5,636 nt of DNA from Nitrososphaerota archaeon (GTDB taxonomy: Archaea > Thermoproteota > Nitrososphaeria > Nitrososphaerales > UBA57): the NCBI GenBank assembly GCA_013378385.1, contig JACAFS010000056.1, positions 1 through 5,636 of the forward strand. Reading direction: 5' to 3'. The notes beneath the pieces were generated by a model, which was not told where the DNA came from, made no database searches, and saw nothing but the letters and a program-made list of their open reading frames with translations. Below, in pieces: positions 1 to 5,636 of the stretch (its first letter is position 1; each line of letters begins with the position of its first letter). The translations under genes and the position numbers were made by a program.

Positions 1-584
1 AAATATGTTTTTGATTTTTTATGCCATCCAATACATAAAGGTCGAAAACCACGAGTATCTCTAAATGCGTATATTTCATTATTAGGAGTTAAGATTACAA
101 AACAATATGCTCCAACTAGTTCGTCACATAATAATTCTATTGATTTAAACCAATCGAAGTTATTTGTCTTCAAGATAGCCAATAATCTTTTACCAACTAT
201 AGATGTATCATTAATTCTTCTAGGTTTTTTACCAGTAATTTTAGTATTTACAGAAGTAAGATCACAAACAGTGCCGTTATGTGCTATGCAGAATTTTTTA
301 TTTATAGAGAAAGGTTGAGCGTTGGAAAGAGATGTACCACCTGCTGTAGAATATCTCACATGACCAATTGCAACACTACTTTTCATTTGTTGAAGAACTT
401 GAGCAGAGTGATCCAGATTATCAGTGACTAATCCATTTTGTTTGAAAGGATTCATTGTTGAAGTAGCTATGCCCCAAGCTTCTTGACCCCTATGCTGCAG
501 ACCTCGTAGGCCGATTGTTACAAGGGGGATAACGTCAGTTTTGGAATTGGAAAATGCTGCAAATAAACCACATTTTTCTTTCAT
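1..584 (-). CDS. purF: Amidophosphoribosyltransferase (glutamine-PRPP amidotransferase), N-terminal ~194 codons; 3' end lies beyond the window
   Basis: Hand translation of the minus strand from ATG 584..582 gives MKEKCGLFAAFSNSKTDVIPLVTIGLRGLQHRGQEAWGIATSTMNPFKQNGLVTDNLDHSAQVLQQMKSSVAIGHVRYSTAGGTSLSNAQPFSINKKFCIAHNGTVCDL...AFRDTRGFRPLCIGWHKK..., with no stop down to position 1. Class-II (Ntn) amidotransferase hallmarks are present: the Cys-Gly nucleophile near the N-terminus, RGQE, GHVRYST.G, QPF, HNG and RD..G.RPL. It is probably absent from the ORF track because it is open at the window edge. Its ATG overlaps the purL stop (ATGA, 584..581). Confidence 0.9.
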   Translation of the reverse strand, partial: MKEKCGLFAAFSNSKTDVIPLVTIGLRGLQHRGQEAWGIATSTMNPFKQNGLVTDNLDHSAQVLQQMKSSVAIGHVRYSTAGGTSLSNAQPFSINKKFCIAHNGTVCDLTSVNTKITGKKPRRINDTSIVGKRLLAILKTNNFDWFKSIELLCDELVGAYCFVILTPNNEIYAFRDTRGFRPLCIGWHKKSKTY

Positions 585-2791
585 ATCTGGCCATCCATAA
601 ATTTAGATAAACTATCATAGACATAAGATCGGATGTAATCAAGATCATAGGAGAATAGATTGTCATCCTTATTGTAAACTTGGAAATCATGACCGCCAAT
701 TGAACCTATTATTGAAACAGGAATGTCGTGATTTCTAGATATATTAAGTAAGTTGGTGAAATTCTCTTTTTTAATGGTGGCAATAAATCGTGAATGAGAC
801 TCAGAGAACAGCAACTCATCCCAGCGTTTACAGTTAGAAGGGATGTTAGAAAGGTCTATTGAAGCTCCCATGTCACTAATAGTGCACATTTGGAGAAGAG
901 AATGAATTAAACCGCCTTTTGAACAATCGTTGACTGCGCCAAATAATCCAACTTTAATACCATCACGAACAAGTTTTTGAGCACGTTTTTCAAGTTCGAA
1001 GTTCAATTGTGGAACAATTCCAGATTTACTATGCCCCATAGATGAATAATACTCAGATCCTCCGAGCTCGTCAAAGGTTTCGCCGACCATAACAATAAGA
1101 GGTCGAGAAGGATGAAGTTTCCTAGTCCGAAGATTATGTTCGCCTTTTATTAATCCAGCAACAGAGATTACAGGACTTGGTTTAATAGCATCGTGTGTCT
1201 TTGCGTCTTCGTTATAGAAGCTAACTTTTCCACCAACACAAGGTATTCCAATATAAGAACAGAAATCTGAAATAGATTTAATCGTTTCATTAAATGTCCA
1301 AAATACATCAGAATTACTAGGGTTTCCAAATTGTAAATGATCCAACATAGCAATAGGTTCAGCGCCAACAGATATTACATTCCTCATTGCTTCTGCAACA
1401 ACTCCTGCCGAACCATTATAAGGATCAAGATAACAATGAGATGGATTGCCGTCAACAGAAATAGCAATAAATTTTTCAGGTGCAATTCGGATTACGGATG
1501 CGCCAGATTCACCAGGTTTAACTATAGTATTAGTTCCAACTTCATGGTCATATTGCTGAAAAATCCATGATTTGTCAGCAAGGTTTGGAGAGGATAAAAC
1601 TTTCAGCAATGTTTCTTTTATGTCTACAGGCAGTTCAGGTTTAGAAACAGGTTTACTATCGAGATACTTCGGTTTAGTCTTCGGCCAGTTAATTAATGGA
1701 GCATTAGCAATGAGTTCAGTAGGTAAATCGACTATCGTATCGCCATTATTAGTAATAATTACATGTTTTGTGTCAGTAACTTTTCCAATAACAGAATACT
1801 GTAAATTGTATTTATCAAAACACTTTGAGATAGTGTCAAGATTATCAGGATTTATTATGAACAGCATTCTTTCTTGTGATTCAGAAATAAGAATTTCATA
1901 TGGTTCCATTCCAGATTCACGTAAATGGATTTTTTCAAGATCCACTTCAACTCCAGTATTACCCATATCACTAACTTCTGACAAACAACAGGCCAAACCT
2001 CCTCCTCCTAGGTCTTTGAGTCCAGAAACAAGTCCAGTACTTAGGGCATCCATTGTACCTTCTATAATTAGTTTTTTAATGAATGGATCAGGAATTTGTA
2101 CTGCTGATCTGTCGGTAGGTATGTCGTCTAAATCTTTTGATGCAAACGAGGAGCCATGGATTCCATCTCTGCCAGTACTATTTCCCAATAATACAAGAAT
2201 GTCGCCAACGTTCTTTGCTTCAGAAAAGATCAATTGTTTCTTCTTGCCCACGCCAATGGATACAACGTCCACTAGACAATTTGTATCAAAACAACTATCA
2301 AAAGAAAGCTCACCTCCAATGGTAGGGATTCCAACGCAGTTTCCGTAATCAGCAATTCCACGAACAACATTTTGGAGCAGCCAACGATTATTTGGATTAC
2401 TCAGATTACCAAATCGTAACGAGTCAAGAACTGCGATAGGTCTTGTTCCAATTGATAAAATATCACGTAAAACACCTCCTACTCCTGTAGCAGCTCCGCC
2501 ATACGGATCTATTGCAGAAGGATGATTATGACTTTCGATATGCATTGTAAGTACTTGACCATTATCTACATCCAATACACCTGCTTCATACCCTGGGCCA
2601 AATAATACTCTCTTGCCCTTAGTAGGAAGGAGTTTAAGAAGTGATTTTGATGACTTGTAGCTGCAATGTTCAGACCATTGTGCGTCAATCATGGATAGTT
2701 CAACACTGTTAGGTTTACGATTAAGGGATTTTTCAACATATATCAATTCATTTTCAGTAAGAGAATGATCTACAAATTCAGTTTTGCTCAT
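581..2791 (-). CDS. purL: Phosphoribosylformylglycinamidine (FGAM) synthase II, small-type PurL subunit (736 aa)
   Basis: Tracked ORF of 736 aa. It has typical small-PurL motifs: DAQWSEHCSYKSS, ESHNHPSAIDPYGGAATGVGGVLRDI, the glycine-rich KDLGGGGL and the duplicated AIR-synthase-like halves. It sits after purS/purQ and before purF. ATG at 2791..2789 is preceded by GAGGTG 8 nt upstream. Confidence 0.97.
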   Translation of the reverse strand: MSKTEFVDHSLTENELIYVEKSLNRKPNSVELSMIDAQWSEHCSYKSSKSLLKLLPTKGKRVLFGPGYEAGVLDVDNGQVLTMHIESHNHPSAIDPYGGAATGVGGVLRDILSIGTRPIAVLDSLRFGNLSNPNNRWLLQNVVRGIADYGNCVGIPTIGGELSFDSCFDTNCLVDVVSIGVGKKKQLIFSEAKNVGDILVLLGNSTGRDGIHGSSFASKDLDDIPTDRSAVQIPDPFIKKLIIEGTMDALSTGLVSGLKDLGGGGLACCLSEVSDMGNTGVEVDLEKIHLRESGMEPYEILISESQERMLFIINPDNLDTISKCFDKYNLQYSVIGKVTDTKHVIITNNGDTIVDLPTELIANAPLINWPKTKPKYLDSKPVSKPELPVDIKETLLKVLSSPNLADKSWIFQQYDHEVGTNTIVKPGESGASVIRIAPEKFIAISVDGNPSHCYLDPYNGSAGVVAEAMRNVISVGAEPIAMLDHLQFGNPSNSDVFWTFNETIKSISDFCSYIGIPCVGGKVSFYNEDAKTHDAIKPSPVISVAGLIKGEHNLRTRKLHPSRPLIVMVGETFDELGGSEYYSSMGHSKSGIVPQLNFELEKRAQKLVRDGIKVGLFGAVNDCSKGGLIHSLLQMCTISDMGASIDLSNIPSNCKRWDELLFSESHSRFIATIKKENFTNLLNISRNHDIPVSIIGSIGGHDFQVYNKDDNLFSYDLDYIRSYVYDSLSKFMDGQI

Positions 2792-2964
2792 GTTTTAAAC
2801 ACCTCATCTTTTATCGTCCTTAATTCAAGAGCTATCTGCTCCAAAGCCTCTGCTATCCTTATTTCATTGTTGTTACAAGATTTACAGAAATGTTCGTGAC
2901 GATGAATTATATTTTCACTCACTGAATCGATTAACTTACATGACTCGCATAAATGGTCACTCAT
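2788..2964 (-). CDS. Untracked 58-aa small protein with two CxxC pairs (zinc-ribbon/knuckle-like) and a C-terminal amphipathic helix; function unknown
   Basis: Hand translation from ATG 2964..2962 to TGA 2790..2788 gives MSDHLCESCKLIDSVSENIIHRHEHFCKSCNNNEIRIAEALEQIALELRTIKDEVFKT. The start overlaps the purQ stop as ATGA (2964..2961) and the stop overlaps the purL start as ATGA (2791..2788). An in-frame upstream stop at 2982..2980 makes this ATG the first possible start. The cysteines are C6/C9 and C27/C30, with an HRHEH cluster between them. The ORF is shorter than any ORF listed in the track (shortest is 62 aa), so it was presumably excluded on length. I do not recognise the family, so coding status rests on sequence architecture only. 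Confidence 0.6.
   Translation of the reverse strand: MSDHLCESCKLIDSVSENIIHRHEHFCKSCNNNEIRIAEALEQIALELRTIKDEVFKT
2800..2805 (-). promoter_or_regulatory. Shine-Dalgarno-like GAGGTG 8 nt upstream of the purL ATG, embedded in the last codons (D-E-V) of the small ORF
   Basis: The minus strand reads GAT GAG GTG TTT AAA ACA TGA, with the purL ATG inside ACATGA. GAGGTG matches the complement of the conserved 16S 3' tail (..CACCUCC..). Similar weaker motifs occur before purQ (GAGGA, 3685..3689, 10 nt before TTG) and before the wHTH gene (GGAG, 5145..5148, 9 nt before ATG). Whether this organism uses SD pairing is not known from the window. Confidence 0.35.
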
Positions 2965-3674
2965 TCTTTTAGCATAACCTCAAGAGATAATATCATTGAA
3001 CGAAAGATTTCAATACCGTCGTCAGTAGAATAAGGGCTAAGTAAAGAATCAGATGCACGTTCGGGATGAGGCATCATGCCAAGAACATTACCGTTTGCAT
3101 TTGATACAGCTGCAATATTTGAGATCGAACCATTAGGATTATTGTCAAGGGAAGTATTGCCATCAGAATCAGAATATCTAAGGATTATTTGGTTGTTTCT
3201 TTCAAGTTCTTGAAGTTTATCATCACTAACATAATATCGTCCTTCATTATGTGCAATAGGCATACGTATCACAGAATCAGACTGAAATGAATTAGTAAAA
3301 AGATTATTATGCTCGACTTTGAGATTCACCCATTTACAAATAAATTTGAGGTTAGAGTTAGTCAGTAATGCTCCAGGAAGTAGGCCAGATTCTACCAATA
3401 TTTGAAATCCATTACAAATACCAATAATAGGTTTGCCTTTAAGAGAAAGTCTTTTGAGTTGTTTAATGACAGGACTATATGCAGCGATAATTCCTGCACG
3501 TAAACGATCGCCATATGAAAAACCACCAGGAAGAATTATTGCATCGTATTTTTCAAGATTATCAGTATTTTCGTGCCAAAACAAAGTAGCATCAACTTCA
3601 AGATGATCATTAAAAACACGATATGTATCAATATCGCAATTAGTTCCAGGAAATTGAATTATAGCTACATTCAA
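2961..3674 (-). CDS. purQ: FGAM synthase I, glutamine amidotransferase subunit PurQ (237 aa), TTG start
   Basis: Tracked ORF. The N-terminus is NVAIIQFPGTNCD. The class-I GATase triad context is present: GICNGFQIL (nucleophile Cys) and MMPHPER (His/Glu). The start codon at 3674..3672 is TTG. The frame opens only at 3725 (stop at 3728..3726) and has no ATG or GTG before the conserved N-terminus. Confidence 0.95.
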   Translation of the reverse strand: MNVAIIQFPGTNCDIDTYRVFNDHLEVDATLFWHENTDNLEKYDAIILPGGFSYGDRLRAGIIAAYSPVIKQLKRLSLKGKPIIGICNGFQILVESGLLPGALLTNSNLKFICKWVNLKVEHNNLFTNSFQSDSVIRMPIAHNEGRYYVSDDKLQELERNNQIILRYSDSDGNTSLDNNPNGSISNIAAVSNANGNVLGMMPHPERASDSLLSPYSTDDGIEIFRSMILSLEVMLKE

Positions 3675-3675
3675 G

Positions 3676-3942
3676 TCATTCAGTTCCTCGAATTGTACAA
3701 GAACTAACCAAAGGGTTGTAAAGTCTCAATTCATCACAAATAATAGCAGCTTTATTTTTAGCGTCGTCAAGATCATCTGCTTTAACAATTAATTGAATTA
3801 CTTTAGACACACTAACTGAAGTTACATAATCAAAATTATTACGTAATAATAAATCTTGTAAAATTGTATCTCCTTCCGGATTACGAAGTTCGGGTTTAGG
3901 TGATATTAGCAAGTCAATTTTGAACTCAGAGACCGTGGTCAC
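3676..3942 (-). CDS. purS: FGAM synthase PurS subunit (88 aa), GTG start
   Basis: Tracked ORF of PurS size, placed directly upstream of purQ. It has the typical PurS pattern: a beta-strand start (FKIDLLISPKPELRNPEG, compare the K.gv.DP.G motif). The start at 3942..3940 is GTG. The protein has no internal Met, and the frame is closed by TAG at 3984..3982 with no ATG/GTG/TTG in between. Confidence 0.88.
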   Translation of the reverse strand: MTTVSEFKIDLLISPKPELRNPEGDTILQDLLLRNNFDYVTSVSVSKVIQLIVKADDLDDAKNKAAIICDELRLYNPLVSSCTIRGTE

Positions 3943-3972
3943 TTTACCCCAATAGAAATGTGGGATTAATCT

Positions 3973-3980
3973 AATATATA
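3973..3980 (-). promoter_or_regulatory. TATA-box-like element (TATATATT on the minus strand), candidate archaeal promoter for purS-purQ-smallORF-purL-purF
   Basis: It lies in the only real noncoding gap in the window (3943..3997, 55 nt), 31-38 nt upstream of the purS GTG. With the usual archaeal TATA-to-TSS spacing (~ -26/-27) the transcript would be leaderless or have a very short leader. No convincing BRE is seen, and AT-rich background makes chance TATA-like strings common. Confidence 0.4.
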
Positions 3981-3997
3981 CCTAGTGGCAGGAAGAA

Positions 3998-4837
3998 TCA
4001 ATTTTCTAAAGAATAAATTTTATTTATATTATATTCGTCATCAAAAGTTTCGTCTATTGGAGTTTCAAGAATCAAAGGCAATTGTTTAATTGTTGAGTTT
4101 TTCAGAAGTTCCCGGAAACCATTTTCGCCGATAAATCCTCTGCCAATGTGCTGATGTCTATCCAATCCATTGCCCAATTCACCTTTTGAATCATTTAAGT
4201 GAACAACTTTAAGATATTTTAGGCCAATTATCTGATTAAATTTTTTGAGTGTGTCAATAACAGATTTACTTGTAGAAAGGTCATAACCAGCGGCAAAAGC
4301 ATGGCATGTATCAAAACAGAATCCAATACGAGATTTATCATTAACATTATCAAAAATATATTTTAATTCGTCGAATTTAGATCCAACGTTATTTTTTGTA
4401 CCGGCAGTATTTTCTAAGATAATCATAGTATTATTTGAAGAATTAGAAAGTGCGGCATTACAAGCTTTTACTACACGATCAAGGCCTTTTTCTAAACCTG
4501 TACCAAGATGACTTCCAATATGTGTAACAACATATTCGATTCCAAGCGTGTTACAGCGTTCAAGTTCAGAACTTAGAGCATTTATCGACATATTATGAAC
4601 GTCTTCTTTGGGCGAAGAGAGATTGGGTAAATAAGGCATGTGACAGACTACTGTGGAAATATTTTCAGATAATATTTTATTTTTGAAATTGACTATGTTC
4701 GATTCCTTAAGATCGGAAAATTTCCAACCTCGAGGATTTCTTGTAAATATTTGAAAAGTATTAAGGCCAAGAGATCTTGCTCGGTCGATTGATAAATCTA
4801 TAGAACCTGCAATAGATACATGAACGCCAAGTTTCAT
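3998..4837 (-). CDS. nfo: Endonuclease IV (AP endonuclease family 2, TIM-barrel, trinuclear-Zn DNA repair enzyme), 279 aa
   Basis: Tracked ORF. The metal-ligand and signature blocks of the Nfo family are present in order: GVHVS, FQIFTRNPRGW, CHMPYLPNLSSP, VTHIGSH, ILENTAG, CFDTCHAFAAGYD, VHLNDSK, DRHQHIG.G.IG, ILETP. ATG at 4837..4835. Confidence 0.93.
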   Translation of the reverse strand: MKLGVHVSIAGSIDLSIDRARSLGLNTFQIFTRNPRGWKFSDLKESNIVNFKNKILSENISTVVCHMPYLPNLSSPKEDVHNMSINALSSELERCNTLGIEYVVTHIGSHLGTGLEKGLDRVVKACNAALSNSSNNTMIILENTAGTKNNVGSKFDELKYIFDNVNDKSRIGFCFDTCHAFAAGYDLSTSKSVIDTLKKFNQIIGLKYLKVVHLNDSKGELGNGLDRHQHIGRGFIGENGFRELLKNSTIKQLPLILETPIDETFDDEYNINKIYSLEN

Positions 4838-4847
4838 TTATAATATT

Positions 4848-5135
4848 TTATAATTTCATTCCAAAGCTTTCTGCGAAATCTGCGAAATCAGAGTGAGATC
4901 GTAGATATTCAATTCCTTTATGGCTTAGGACGTATCTTTGATTATTGTCTATTGTAACTTGTTCAACTAAACCAGAATCAACTAAACGTGTAATAATTTT
5001 TGTAGCTCGGCCATAGGAAAGATTTGCTTTTTGAATTATTCTAGTAATTCCTAATCCAGATTCTCCGTCACTACCATCATTAATTGATGATAATACATCC
5101 GCTACAATTTTAACTTGAGTTCTATATACCGACAT
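4848..5135 (-). CDS. Small winged helix-turn-helix DNA-binding protein (archaeal COG3432 / HTH_45-like putative transcriptional regulator), 95 aa
   Basis: Tracked ORF. The pattern R..V.I.ADVL....(insert)..G.T.I..KANLSY......I..L...GLVE.......YVLS.KG.EYL matches my recollection of the archaeal wHTH family, where typical members read R...EI..dIL.....kT.Im..anLsy.....Yl..L...gLi......Y.iTekG...L. The ATG at 5135..5133 overlaps the upstream membrane gene by 14 nt and is preceded by GGAG. Confidence 0.72.
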   Translation of the reverse strand: MSVYRTQVKIVADVLSSINDGSDGESGLGITRIIQKANLSYGRATKIITRLVDSGLVEQVTIDNNQRYVLSHKGIEYLRSHSDFADFAESFGMKL

Positions 5136-5613
5136 TATTTTCTTCTCCTTTGTATGTGTTAAAACTACTTACTGGCGTATAAAGCATTATGAATCCAATT
5201 AATTTGACTAAAATGGAAGATATCATTAACGGACTTAACCCGGAGTAAAATAAGGCCAGCCACCTTATAAATTCACCGGCAGCTAATGAAGAGAATCCAA
5301 GGAACATAAAAAGAATTGGGCGTTTTTTTGACTCTAAATAAGATAAGAAAGTTTCAAATGAGCCATAAAGAAGAAAAACAAATGAAATTGACTTCAGAAT
5401 AGACAATACAGATATGGTAGTTAGAAATCCAAATGCGGCAGGAACTAGTGCTGATTTTTGATATGATTTGATTCCATGGCCCAATGCTAGAATAAAGTAT
5501 CCCAATAGTTCAAATGATGCAGCGATTATAAGAAACAGAGAAGTCAGAGCTATAGAGATTCCAAGAAGTTCGAGACGGAATTGAAGTAAATCGTATTTGA
5601 AAGTAAGATACAT
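5122..5613 (-). CDS. Hypothetical integral membrane protein (163 aa, roughly 4-6 hydrophobic helices), no recognised family
   Basis: Tracked ORF with ATG at 5613..5611. Hydrophobic helix-length segments are at about residues 14-34, 36-48, 54-73, 75-93, 99-116 and 118-145, separated by short polar or basic loops (KSYQK, ESKKRP), with a polar acidic tail (YKGEENNVGI). Composition and periodicity look coding. No catalytic motif was recognised. Confidence 0.6.
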   Translation of the reverse strand: MYLTFKYDLLQFRLELLGISIALTSLFLIIAASFELLGYFILALGHGIKSYQKSALVPAAFGFLTTISVLSILKSISFVFLLYGSFETFLSYLESKKRPILFMFLGFSSLAAGEFIRWLALFYSGLSPLMISSILVKLIGFIMLYTPVSSFNTYKGEENNVGI

Positions 5614-5636
5614 AAATTTAGGAAATATGTATGTAA

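Follow-up and report, generated by a model that had tools for sequence, protein, structure and literature searches.

The one-domain zinc-finger micro-proteins of haloarchaea, such as HVO_2753 and HVO_0758 of Haloferax volcanii and Brz of Halobacterium salinarum, are polypeptides shorter than 70 residues with two CxxC pairs that are often overlooked by annotation, are often lineage-specific, and serve as small adaptors or regulators (PMC6562870, PMC10716476, PMC2253796). A gene for a protein of comparable build is located between purQ and purL in the purine operon of a marine, ammonia-oxidising Nitrososphaerota archaeon, on a DNA stretch of 5,636 nucleotides (GenBank assembly GCA_013378385.1, contig JACAFS010000056.1, positions 1 to 5,636; the window in the following). 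This gene, ORF58 (2788..2964, minus strand), encodes a 58-residue micro-protein, MSDHLCESCKLIDSVSENIIHRHEHFCKSCNNNEIRIAEALEQIALELRTIKDEVFKT, which likewise stays below 70 residues, contains two CxxC pairs and tends to escape annotation, but which has no sequence homology to the haloarchaeal proteins and is thaumarchaeal. Its motifs, CESC(K) and C(K/E)SC(N), differ from the C(P)XCG of the Haloferax proteins, as CESCK and CKSCN/CESCN have no proline at position 2 and no glycine after the second cysteine. ORF58 has in addition an HRHEH cluster and, at its C-terminus, a long coiled-coil helix, it is embedded in a biosynthetic operon by a double ATGA coupling, unlike the Haloferax micro-proteins, and metal binding is in its case a prediction. 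It is well supported that ORF58 represents a previously unnamed small-protein family that resembles the archaeal one-domain zinc-finger micro-proteins. The explanation that is favoured, and that is held to be probable, is that ORF58 encodes a Cys4/His and coiled-coil micro-protein, that the gene is translationally coupled within the operon, and that it was captured at an ATGA overlap and has since been exchanged by recombination.

The other system that invites comparison is PurS, a component of the formylglycinamidine ribonucleotide (FGAM) synthase PurS/PurQ/PurL. Like ORF58, PurS is a small protein (88 residues in the window) whose gene belongs to this operon and is translated together with purQ and purL, and to our knowledge PurS is present in all cases in which purL and purQ are split. 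PurS has a defined fold (PF02700), whereas ORF58 is unrelated to it, occurs in one narrow clade, is missing from close relatives and has a further copy away from the operon; a co-occurrence with split purL and purQ across taxa in the manner of PurS is not seen for ORF58.

The position of ORF58 in the operon is very exact. The initial annotation, which was made from the window sequence alone, had described an open reading frame (ORF) that fills the 169-nt gap between purQ and purL to the nucleotide, with a 58-residue product carrying the pairs C6/C9 and C27/C30 and the HRHEH cluster, and all this is confirmed, as is the identity of the neighbours PurS, PurQ and PurL, on which Pfam and NCBIfam agree. 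Upstream, the TGA of purQ (FGAM synthase glutaminase subunit, 2961..3674, minus strand; TIGR01737, 1.1e-93) lies within the ATG of ORF58 (ATGA, 2961..2964), and downstream the TGA of ORF58 lies within the ATG of purL (FGAM synthase II, 581..2791, minus strand; TIGR01736, 1.4e-265), again in an ATGA (2788..2791). The insert thus has the anatomy ATGA-[173 nt]-ATGA, where the junction of relatives is a plain ATGA. The purQ–ORF58 overlap is found also in L001, L081-L084, L091, L093 and L094, and in L084 a 1-nt indel at the junction with purL lets ORF58 end two codons later at a TAA, with an overlap of 8 nt. Also the likely initiation signals are nested in the coding regions: codons E54-V55 of ORF58 form a GAGGTG that resembles a Shine-Dalgarno (SD) sequence, 8 nt 5' of the purL ATG (2800..2805, minus strand), as had been noted before, and a GAGGT in the 3' end of purQ (2977..2981, minus strand; codons L-E-V) lies 12 nt 5' of the ORF58 ATG. 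In relatives without the insert, this purQ-borne GAGGT precedes purL (L092: ...CTCGAGGTTATGTTAAAAGAATGAGT...), and in the window it precedes ORF58. The arrangement is not confined to a single assembly, as public assemblies contain the exact window protein in 82 blocks, with contigs of up to 71 kb, and all 4 listed places with this protein have the order purS-purQ-ORF58-purL-purF-purD-purE-purC-purM.

Despite this setting, ORF58 has been missed by gene callers: it is uncalled in the NCBI metagenome-assembled genome (MAG) GCA_013378375.1 (L094) and in three Tara-type contigs (L096-L098), and a call by the Joint Genome Institute (P0008) is truncated to 44 residues that start from an internal GTG. 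These omissions are in favour of ORF58 being no gene but a chance ORF in a noncoding spacer, a structured RNA, or the reverse side of a real antisense ORF of 44 residues (2765..2899, plus strand), the frame of which also has a low ratio of nonsynonymous to synonymous substitution rates (dN/dS 0.16). The 12 distinct ORF58 DNA copies from related metagenome and MAG loci argue otherwise. Their sense frame contains no stop in 12 of 12 copies, the variable sites are distributed over codon positions 1, 2 and 3 as 17/5/37, and the pooled dN/dS is 0.096. The remaining frames are closed or have a ratio near or above 1, with the exception of the antisense frame that gave 0.16; this frame is closed, with 19 stops over the ORF58 span and stops in every copy, and its low ratio is a by-product, because it mirrors ORF58 and has the third codon positions in common with it. 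In addition, the start of the antisense ORF sits inside purL and does not exist at a second type of locus (type B, see below), where ORF58 itself is conserved, and the antisense ORF was therefore rejected. A riboswitch or attenuator was rejected as well, since the region has no Rfam match at E ≤ 1 and its RNA shows no unusual stability (fold z-score -0.49 against shuffles). Only 0.57% of the shuffles of the 169-nt spacer remain open in the ORF58 frame; the comparison of the copies carries far more weight than this chance estimate. Constraint on the amino acid level is found also within each type of copy: in the operon (type A) copies alone, the ratio of the proportions of nonsynonymous and synonymous differences (pN/pS) is 0.06 in the first part of the gene (codons 1-37) and 0.21 in the second (codons 38-57), and in type B copies alone, pN is 0.007-0.029 against a pS of 0.26-0.33. 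With its conserved open frame, its third-position substitutions and a dN/dS well below 1, ORF58 looks like coding genes do in general. A translated micro-protein in place of an empty spacer had been proposed, and the codon-position bias, the dN/dS of about 0.1, the intactness of every copy and the tolerated junction indel in L084 bear this out. It is thus almost certain that ORF58 is a real translated gene, and the view that it is none is hardly credible and already effectively refuted by the comparative data.

As to the relationships of the protein, 8 relatives, none of them below 82% identity, were recovered from 5.8 billion proteins by a word-seeded search, and an exhaustive HMMER profile search of 1.84 billion cluster representatives, of the kind that the initial annotation had proposed, returned only ORF58's own cluster and one spurious repeat protein. 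There is nothing above threshold in Pfam, no match in NCBIfam, and no defence-system match in PADLOC. That no named family can be assigned has therefore held up in Pfam, NCBIfam, the profile search and the PDB sequences, and judged from these sequence searches the family appears to be an orphan of a narrow marine Nitrosopumilales clade. Several resemblances were followed and rejected. The C4 finger of Escherichia coli DksA/TraR presumably has the same C-x2-C-x17-C-x2-C spacing, CESC as its first motif and a helix after the second CxxC, but there is no Pfam zf-dskA_traR match at E ≤ 10 and the hhalign probability is 2.9% over 8 columns. DksA has an N-terminal coiled-coil hairpin with a DxxDxA tip that ORF58 does not have, and it acts at the secondary channel of the bacterial RNA polymerase, a context that does not exist in archaea; the resemblance would hence be one of spacing only. 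The uncharacterised families DUF6510 (PF20120; E 0.02, 15.2 bits, residues 4-52) and DUF7685 (PF24734), on neither of which literature was found, are matched weakly and over almost the full length by 8 of 9 and by 6 of 9 family members, respectively. Membership was rejected, as the scores are well below the gathering thresholds of 26.4 and 27 bits, and the repeated matches are not independent because the 9 members are about 85-90% identical. A match to a heavy-metal-associated (HMA)-like metal-binding motif (PDB 2kyz, E 0.22) was discarded also, since C30 aligns with the first HMA cysteine and N33 stands at the place of the second. A viral or phage origin found no support, as no relative exists in IMG/VR or the phage collection, and a mobile element was rejected, since there are no transposases, repeats, or viral or plasmid links and both types of loci have chromosomal housekeeping neighbours. 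It appears that ORF58 moves through recombination only.

The protein consists of two parts. The Cys/His module comprises codons 6-30 (2875..2949, minus strand) with the pattern C6xxC9-x17-C27xxC30 and the cluster H21-R-H-E-H25, and codons 34-56 (2797..2865, minus strand) form an amphipathic heptad helix in which I37, L41, I44, L48, I51 and V55 follow each other at a 4-3-4-3-4 spacing over at least three heptads. C9, C27 and C30 are invariant in alignment A1, but C6 is a glycine in one copy, so that the expected conservation of four cysteines holds for three of them. The deviating copy is P0007 (L090:21-197), a type-B copy on a 680-nt contig, where Cys6 is changed to Gly by a TGC to GGC change; this could be an error of sequencing or else a natural variant with one of the four cysteines missing.

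An AlphaFold2 model, which is based on a shallow multiple sequence alignment of 8 near-identical sequences, has a mean pLDDT (predicted local distance difference test) of 77 and shows a two-helix hairpin with helices at 7-29 and 33-56, of which the latter is the most confident part (block pLDDT 81-90). The C-terminal amphipathic or coiled-coil helix of the initial annotation is well reflected in this model, and the best PDB matches in a sequence profile search, at residues 37-52, are to designed coiled-coil peptides only (IAxxLExIAxxLKxI). It is probable that the protein is an oligomer or adaptor that acts via its coiled coil. For the first part, a zinc ribbon or knuckle had been suggested: the cysteine spacing is compatible with it, but the model has a helical hairpin and no beta ribbon, albeit from a method that is reported to be unreliable for the Cys4 geometry of such micro-proteins. 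Zinc-ribbon profiles matched at sub-threshold levels only (zf-FPG_IleRS at E 0.94, and Zn_ribbon_NOB1 at E 0.12 in 1 of 9 members), and Foldseek found no match for the model in the PDB at E < 1 but only generic hairpins. In the model, helix 1 has one CxxC pair at each of its ends, and within a monomer the two pairs therefore cannot share one metal. It has been reported by the Soppa laboratory that AlphaFold2 cannot predict whether the four cysteines of such micro-proteins adopt a metal-binding geometry, and that zinc was bound by 9 and not by 5 of the 14 purified C(P)XCG proteins of Haloferax (PMC11241148), so that a Cys4 pattern alone is no proof of zinc binding. From its sequence, the Cys4/His module of ORF58 may well bind a metal.

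If it does not, the CxxC pairs could be redox-active dithiols, in a thioredoxin-like or disulfide-stapled hairpin that functions as a thiol-disulfide relay or a redox-sensitive switch. The N-terminus of a helix is the usual place of redox-active CxxC motifs, and the first CxxC of the model is at just this place, at the start of helix 1, with the two pairs too distant for one intramolecular metal site. However, the model is of medium confidence and comes from a shallow alignment, CxxC-x17-CxxC together with HxHxH is more typical of metal sites, and no similarity to a thioredoxin fold or to CHCH proteins was found in Pfam, by Foldseek in the PDB, or in the PDB sequence profile search, which makes a redox function decidedly unlikely.

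The distribution of ORF58 was read down a ladder of PurQ relatives, with identities given to the PurQ of the window. The insert is present at 100% (L104-L107), in a lineage at 98%, and at 88% (L001, L081-L084), 81% (L093) and 76% (L094), and it is absent at 83% (L092), 73% (L095) and 54% (L015), where purQ and purL overlap directly by ATGA. Another 79 purQ loci of bacteria and archaea have no ORF58 relative nearby; a contig scan with universally conserved PurQ peptides gave mostly bacteria, with L001 and L015 being of use. The idea that the spacer ORF is retained in related genomes is therefore correct where the insert is present, as there it is intact and constrained, and incorrect for L092, L095 and L015. 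The presence of the insert is mirrored in the beginning of purL. Its codons 1-12, MSKTEFVDHSLT (2756-2791), are common to the insert-bearing loci L001, L081-L084, L093 and L094, in which the first ~36 nt of purL are almost invariant on the nucleotide level, and at insert-less loci purL starts with MSSTQSVSYSLT or MSKLESLNLSLT. In codons 1-20 of purL, pS is 0.00-0.18 in most insert-bearing pairs and reaches up to 0.36, as compared to 0.63 in the flanks. This 5' stretch seems either to move along as part of the cassette or to be kept constant by the needs of initiation.

These data have to be considered with respect to the function that the initial annotation had in mind, namely that ORF58 adds a fourth component to PurS/PurQ/PurL, as an accessory subunit or assembly factor that senses Zn or the redox state, or that it is a small autoregulator of the purine operon. 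The exact embedding between purQ and purL with its double ATGA coupling implies a roughly stoichiometric co-translation, purifying selection keeps ORF58 in this place in many abundant lineages, and the 5' end of purL varies together with the insert, all of which would suit such a role. On the other hand, ORF58 is absent in the close relatives L092 and L095, which have otherwise the same operon, as well as in L015 and the 79 other purQ loci, a near-identical copy is found at a locus without any pur genes, and the history of ORF58 is discordant with that of purQ and purL. The protein is net acidic (11 D/E versus 7 K/R), which disfavours binding to DNA or RNA and thus an autoregulator, and no homology to a known FGAM synthase component or regulator was detected in Pfam, NCBIfam, the profile search or the PDB sequences. 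Neither the subunit nor the autoregulator is thus upheld; a fourth subunit, assembly factor or autoregulator is unlikely, and so is a dedicated role of ORF58 in FGAM synthase in general. A special form of this idea is that ORF58 is a lineage-specific fourth partner that couples the assembly or activity of FGAM synthase, or purine synthesis, to the metal or redox status, with the helices of types A and B pairing heteromerically. There is a charge swap between these helices, with E39 and E54 in type A and K39 and K54 in type B, and, if true, such an A/B pair would link the pur-operon copy to the stand-alone copy; also this is quite unlikely. Considering the distribution and the second copy, ORF58 would be better described as a facultative passenger of the purine operon that is co-expressed with FGAM synthase without being a core subunit.

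The second type of locus was recognised from the homologs P0004, P0006 and P0007, which do not adjoin pur genes, and it is found in L085, L086, L089, L090, L096-L098, L100 and L103. The type-B copy lies 25 nt 3' of an acidic 116-residue orphan gene and is followed by a convergent membrane-protein gene, in a chromosomal neighbourhood that includes a HIT protein and the small subunit of DNA polymerase D. The homology between the A and B loci runs from the ATG to the stop codon only, with unrelated flanks. Seven diagnostic sites separate the two types, which contain, e.g., the peptides LIDSVSENIIHR and IAEALEQIALELR (type A) and ALEDIALELK (type B). The 3' third of the gene is type-specific (A-B distance 0.24, A-A distance 0.15), while the first 110 nt differ between A and B by 0.116 and within type A by 0.093. 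Codons 54-55 are GAGGTG in all type A copies and AAAGTA or AAAGTG (K54-V55) in all type B copies, so that the SD-like motif for purL is confined to the operon copy; type B copies have no coupled gene downstream. The translational coupling that had been proposed for ORF58 and purL gains support from this type-specific GAGGTG. None of the loci analysed has both a type A and a type B copy.

The 116-residue gene next to type B (L085:1518-1868, L096:4188-4538) encodes a very acidic orphan, MQKIYKVVKYVENDQ...DEDGEYDVDELMQ..., with only two clusters in 5.8 billion proteins, no Pfam match, and a marginal PADLOC match to PRTase_III-A (E 0.006); it and the type-B micro-gene may belong together as a two-gene unit. 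The type-B locus is preceded by tandem paralogous genes for membrane proteins of 49-76 residues that begin with MKNKTxTRLxIxGTV... (L096:2702-3110; L085:28-737), and these constitute another unannotated small-protein family in these archaea.

Three contigs connect the two types of loci. In L087 (662-838) and L088 (279-455), purQ forms the 5' flank, ORF58 begins as type A and ends as type B, and the 3' flank is of type B. L099 (1190-1366) is the reciprocal case, in which a type-B 5' flank leads into an ORF58 that begins as type B and ends as type A, with purL following. In all three, the switch is located between nt 13 and 93 of ORF58. Such hybrids are either assembler chimeras at a near-repeat of 177 nt or products of real recombination, e.g. 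an inversion between inverted copies, that would split purQ from purL, and in both cases they imply that both loci were present together in the samples concerned. Two other contigs show irregularities. In L102 (1270-1449), the last four codons and the 3' flank of a type-B copy are replaced by unrelated sequence (...KDIKNKLNTAH*), which is another rearrangement or a chimera at the ORF58 3' end. L101, from a public ENA assembly, ends in an untrimmed Illumina Nextera adapter (2040-2116; CTGTCTCTTATACACATCTCCGAGCCCACGAGAC), which is a quality warning for short contigs.

That ORF58 has a history of its own is evident from the comparison with its neighbours. Between the window and L094, the nucleotide identity is 75% in purQ, 95% in ORF58 and 76-78% in purL, and the pS of ORF58 is 0.17 versus 0.63 in the flanks (P 3e-7). 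The same is found for the window and L001 (0.28 versus 0.64, P 3.5e-5) and for the window and L084 (0.28 versus 0.67, P 3e-6). The order is reversed for L081 and L084, in which ORF58 has a pS of 0.56 and the flanks have 0.33 (P 0.007), and the close pair L001-L093 agrees in both (0.03 and 0.03). At the type-B locus, the pair L089-L096 has a pS of 0.29 in ORF58 versus 0.06 in the adjacent gene. As the discordance goes in both directions, the synonymous sites of ORF58 are not generally frozen, and the ORF58 tree conflicts with that of its neighbours. This pattern suggests a repeated recombinational exchange or gene conversion of the ORF58 cassette, with a tract that probably often reaches into the first ~12-20 codons of purL.

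An exchange of this kind raises the possibility that ORF58 is a selfish or neutral passenger, an ORF-sized cassette without benefit for the host that spreads by recombination between genomes and copies, and that persists in the operon because it carries the SD and start context of purL, so that only a perfectly precise deletion would be viable. The homology between the loci that ends exactly at the limits of ORF58, the patchy presence, the pS that is discordant in both directions, the hybrid contigs in both reciprocal configurations with their switch within nt 13-93, and the embedded purL SD are all in line with this. What speaks against it is the purifying selection on the amino acid level in both types (pN/pS 0.02-0.2), which means that the protein sequence matters to something, and also the lack of a transposase, of repeats, and of a viral or plasmid link, as well as the fact that just two insertion contexts are known. 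A passenger without any host benefit is therefore rather unlikely.

The favoured explanation, a coding and coupled micro-protein gene that was captured and exchanged, can be described as follows. The Cys4 module, with or without the histidines, would bind a metal ion, i.e. structural zinc or another transition metal, and the C-terminal helix would drive self-association or the binding of a partner, as in archaeal zinc-finger micro-proteins (PMC6562870, PMC10716476). ORF58 would be an internal cistron of the purS-purQ-ORF58-purL-purF operon that is translated by termination-reinitiation coupling. It would start on the ATGA that ends purQ with the use of the GAGGT that served purL in insert-less relatives, and it would thereby have taken over the former initiation context of purL, to which it would relay ribosomes via its own ATGA and the GAGGTG in its last codons. 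Presumably the gene entered at the exact place of the ancestral purQ/purL ATGA overlap, with the stand-alone type-B gene as its probable source and with ATGAGT on the 5' side and AT(G/A)A on the 3' side as candidate microhomologies, and since this capture recombination would have exchanged or converted it from lineage to lineage and from copy to copy. Its distribution suggests that ORF58 is a young gene, restricted to one clade, of which another copy exists elsewhere.

Several points weigh against this explanation. The direction of transfer from B to A and the co-residence of A and B copies in one genome are inferred only, and the hybrid contigs may be assembly chimeras, as their coverage is 1.5-2.5x and the sibling contig L101 ends in adapter sequence. 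With respect to the metal, the model separates the CxxC pairs, although it comes from a shallow alignment and AlphaFold2 is known to mispredict such sites (PMC11241148), five of the 14 Haloferax proteins bound no zinc, the ORF58 motifs are not of the C(P)XCG type, and P0007/L090 has the glycine at Cys6. Finally, the retention in the operon of many abundant lineages and an exchange without loss are compatible also with a purine-related role, and the co-expression with FGAM synthase should not be taken to be without meaning.

Some features of the surrounding operon are worth recording. On the minus strand, the window has the order membrane protein gene, HTH_45 gene, AP-endonuclease-2 TIM-barrel gene, purS, purQ, ORF58 and purL, and the operon, of which purS (3676..3942, minus strand; PF02700, 1e-14) is the first pur gene, runs on beyond the window with purF-purD-purE-purC-purM. 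The trio upstream of purS is on the same strand and conserved across the clade (window 3998-5135; L093:1346-3177; L104:7175-8967), and it consists of genes for a protein of 222-239 residues without Pfam match, a 95-residue winged-helix protein (HTH_45), and a TIM-barrel protein (AP_endonuc_2). The HTH_45 protein is more plausible as a local regulator than the ORF58 micro-protein. In L094 (GCA_013378375.1), purS (3221-3529) and purQ (3501-4244) have been called with extended N-termini, as proteins of 102 and 247 residues with an overlap of 29 nt, which looks like a mis-annotation of start codons around the operon. In L093 (3501-4154), PurQ has 217 residues and a 60-nt in-frame gap relative to the 237-residue PurQ of the window, which points either to an artefact of assembly or to a genuine deletion in a glutaminase that is essential.

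For the abundant marine ammonia oxidisers, ORF58 adds a small-protein family the gene of which is skipped or truncated by standard pipelines, while the textbook picture of a three-subunit PurS/PurQ/PurL is at present unchanged. The second copy and the discordant divergence indicate that a gene of only 177 nt can serve as a recombination substrate between loci and lineages, and recombination of the ORF58 kind matters for the assembly and the interpretation of Nitrosopumilales metagenomes. The purQ–purL junction is furthermore a clean natural case of the way in which a new cistron can enter a translationally coupled junction of an operon and leave this junction intact: the ATGA was duplicated, the old SD was reused, and a new SD was written into the last codons of the newcomer.

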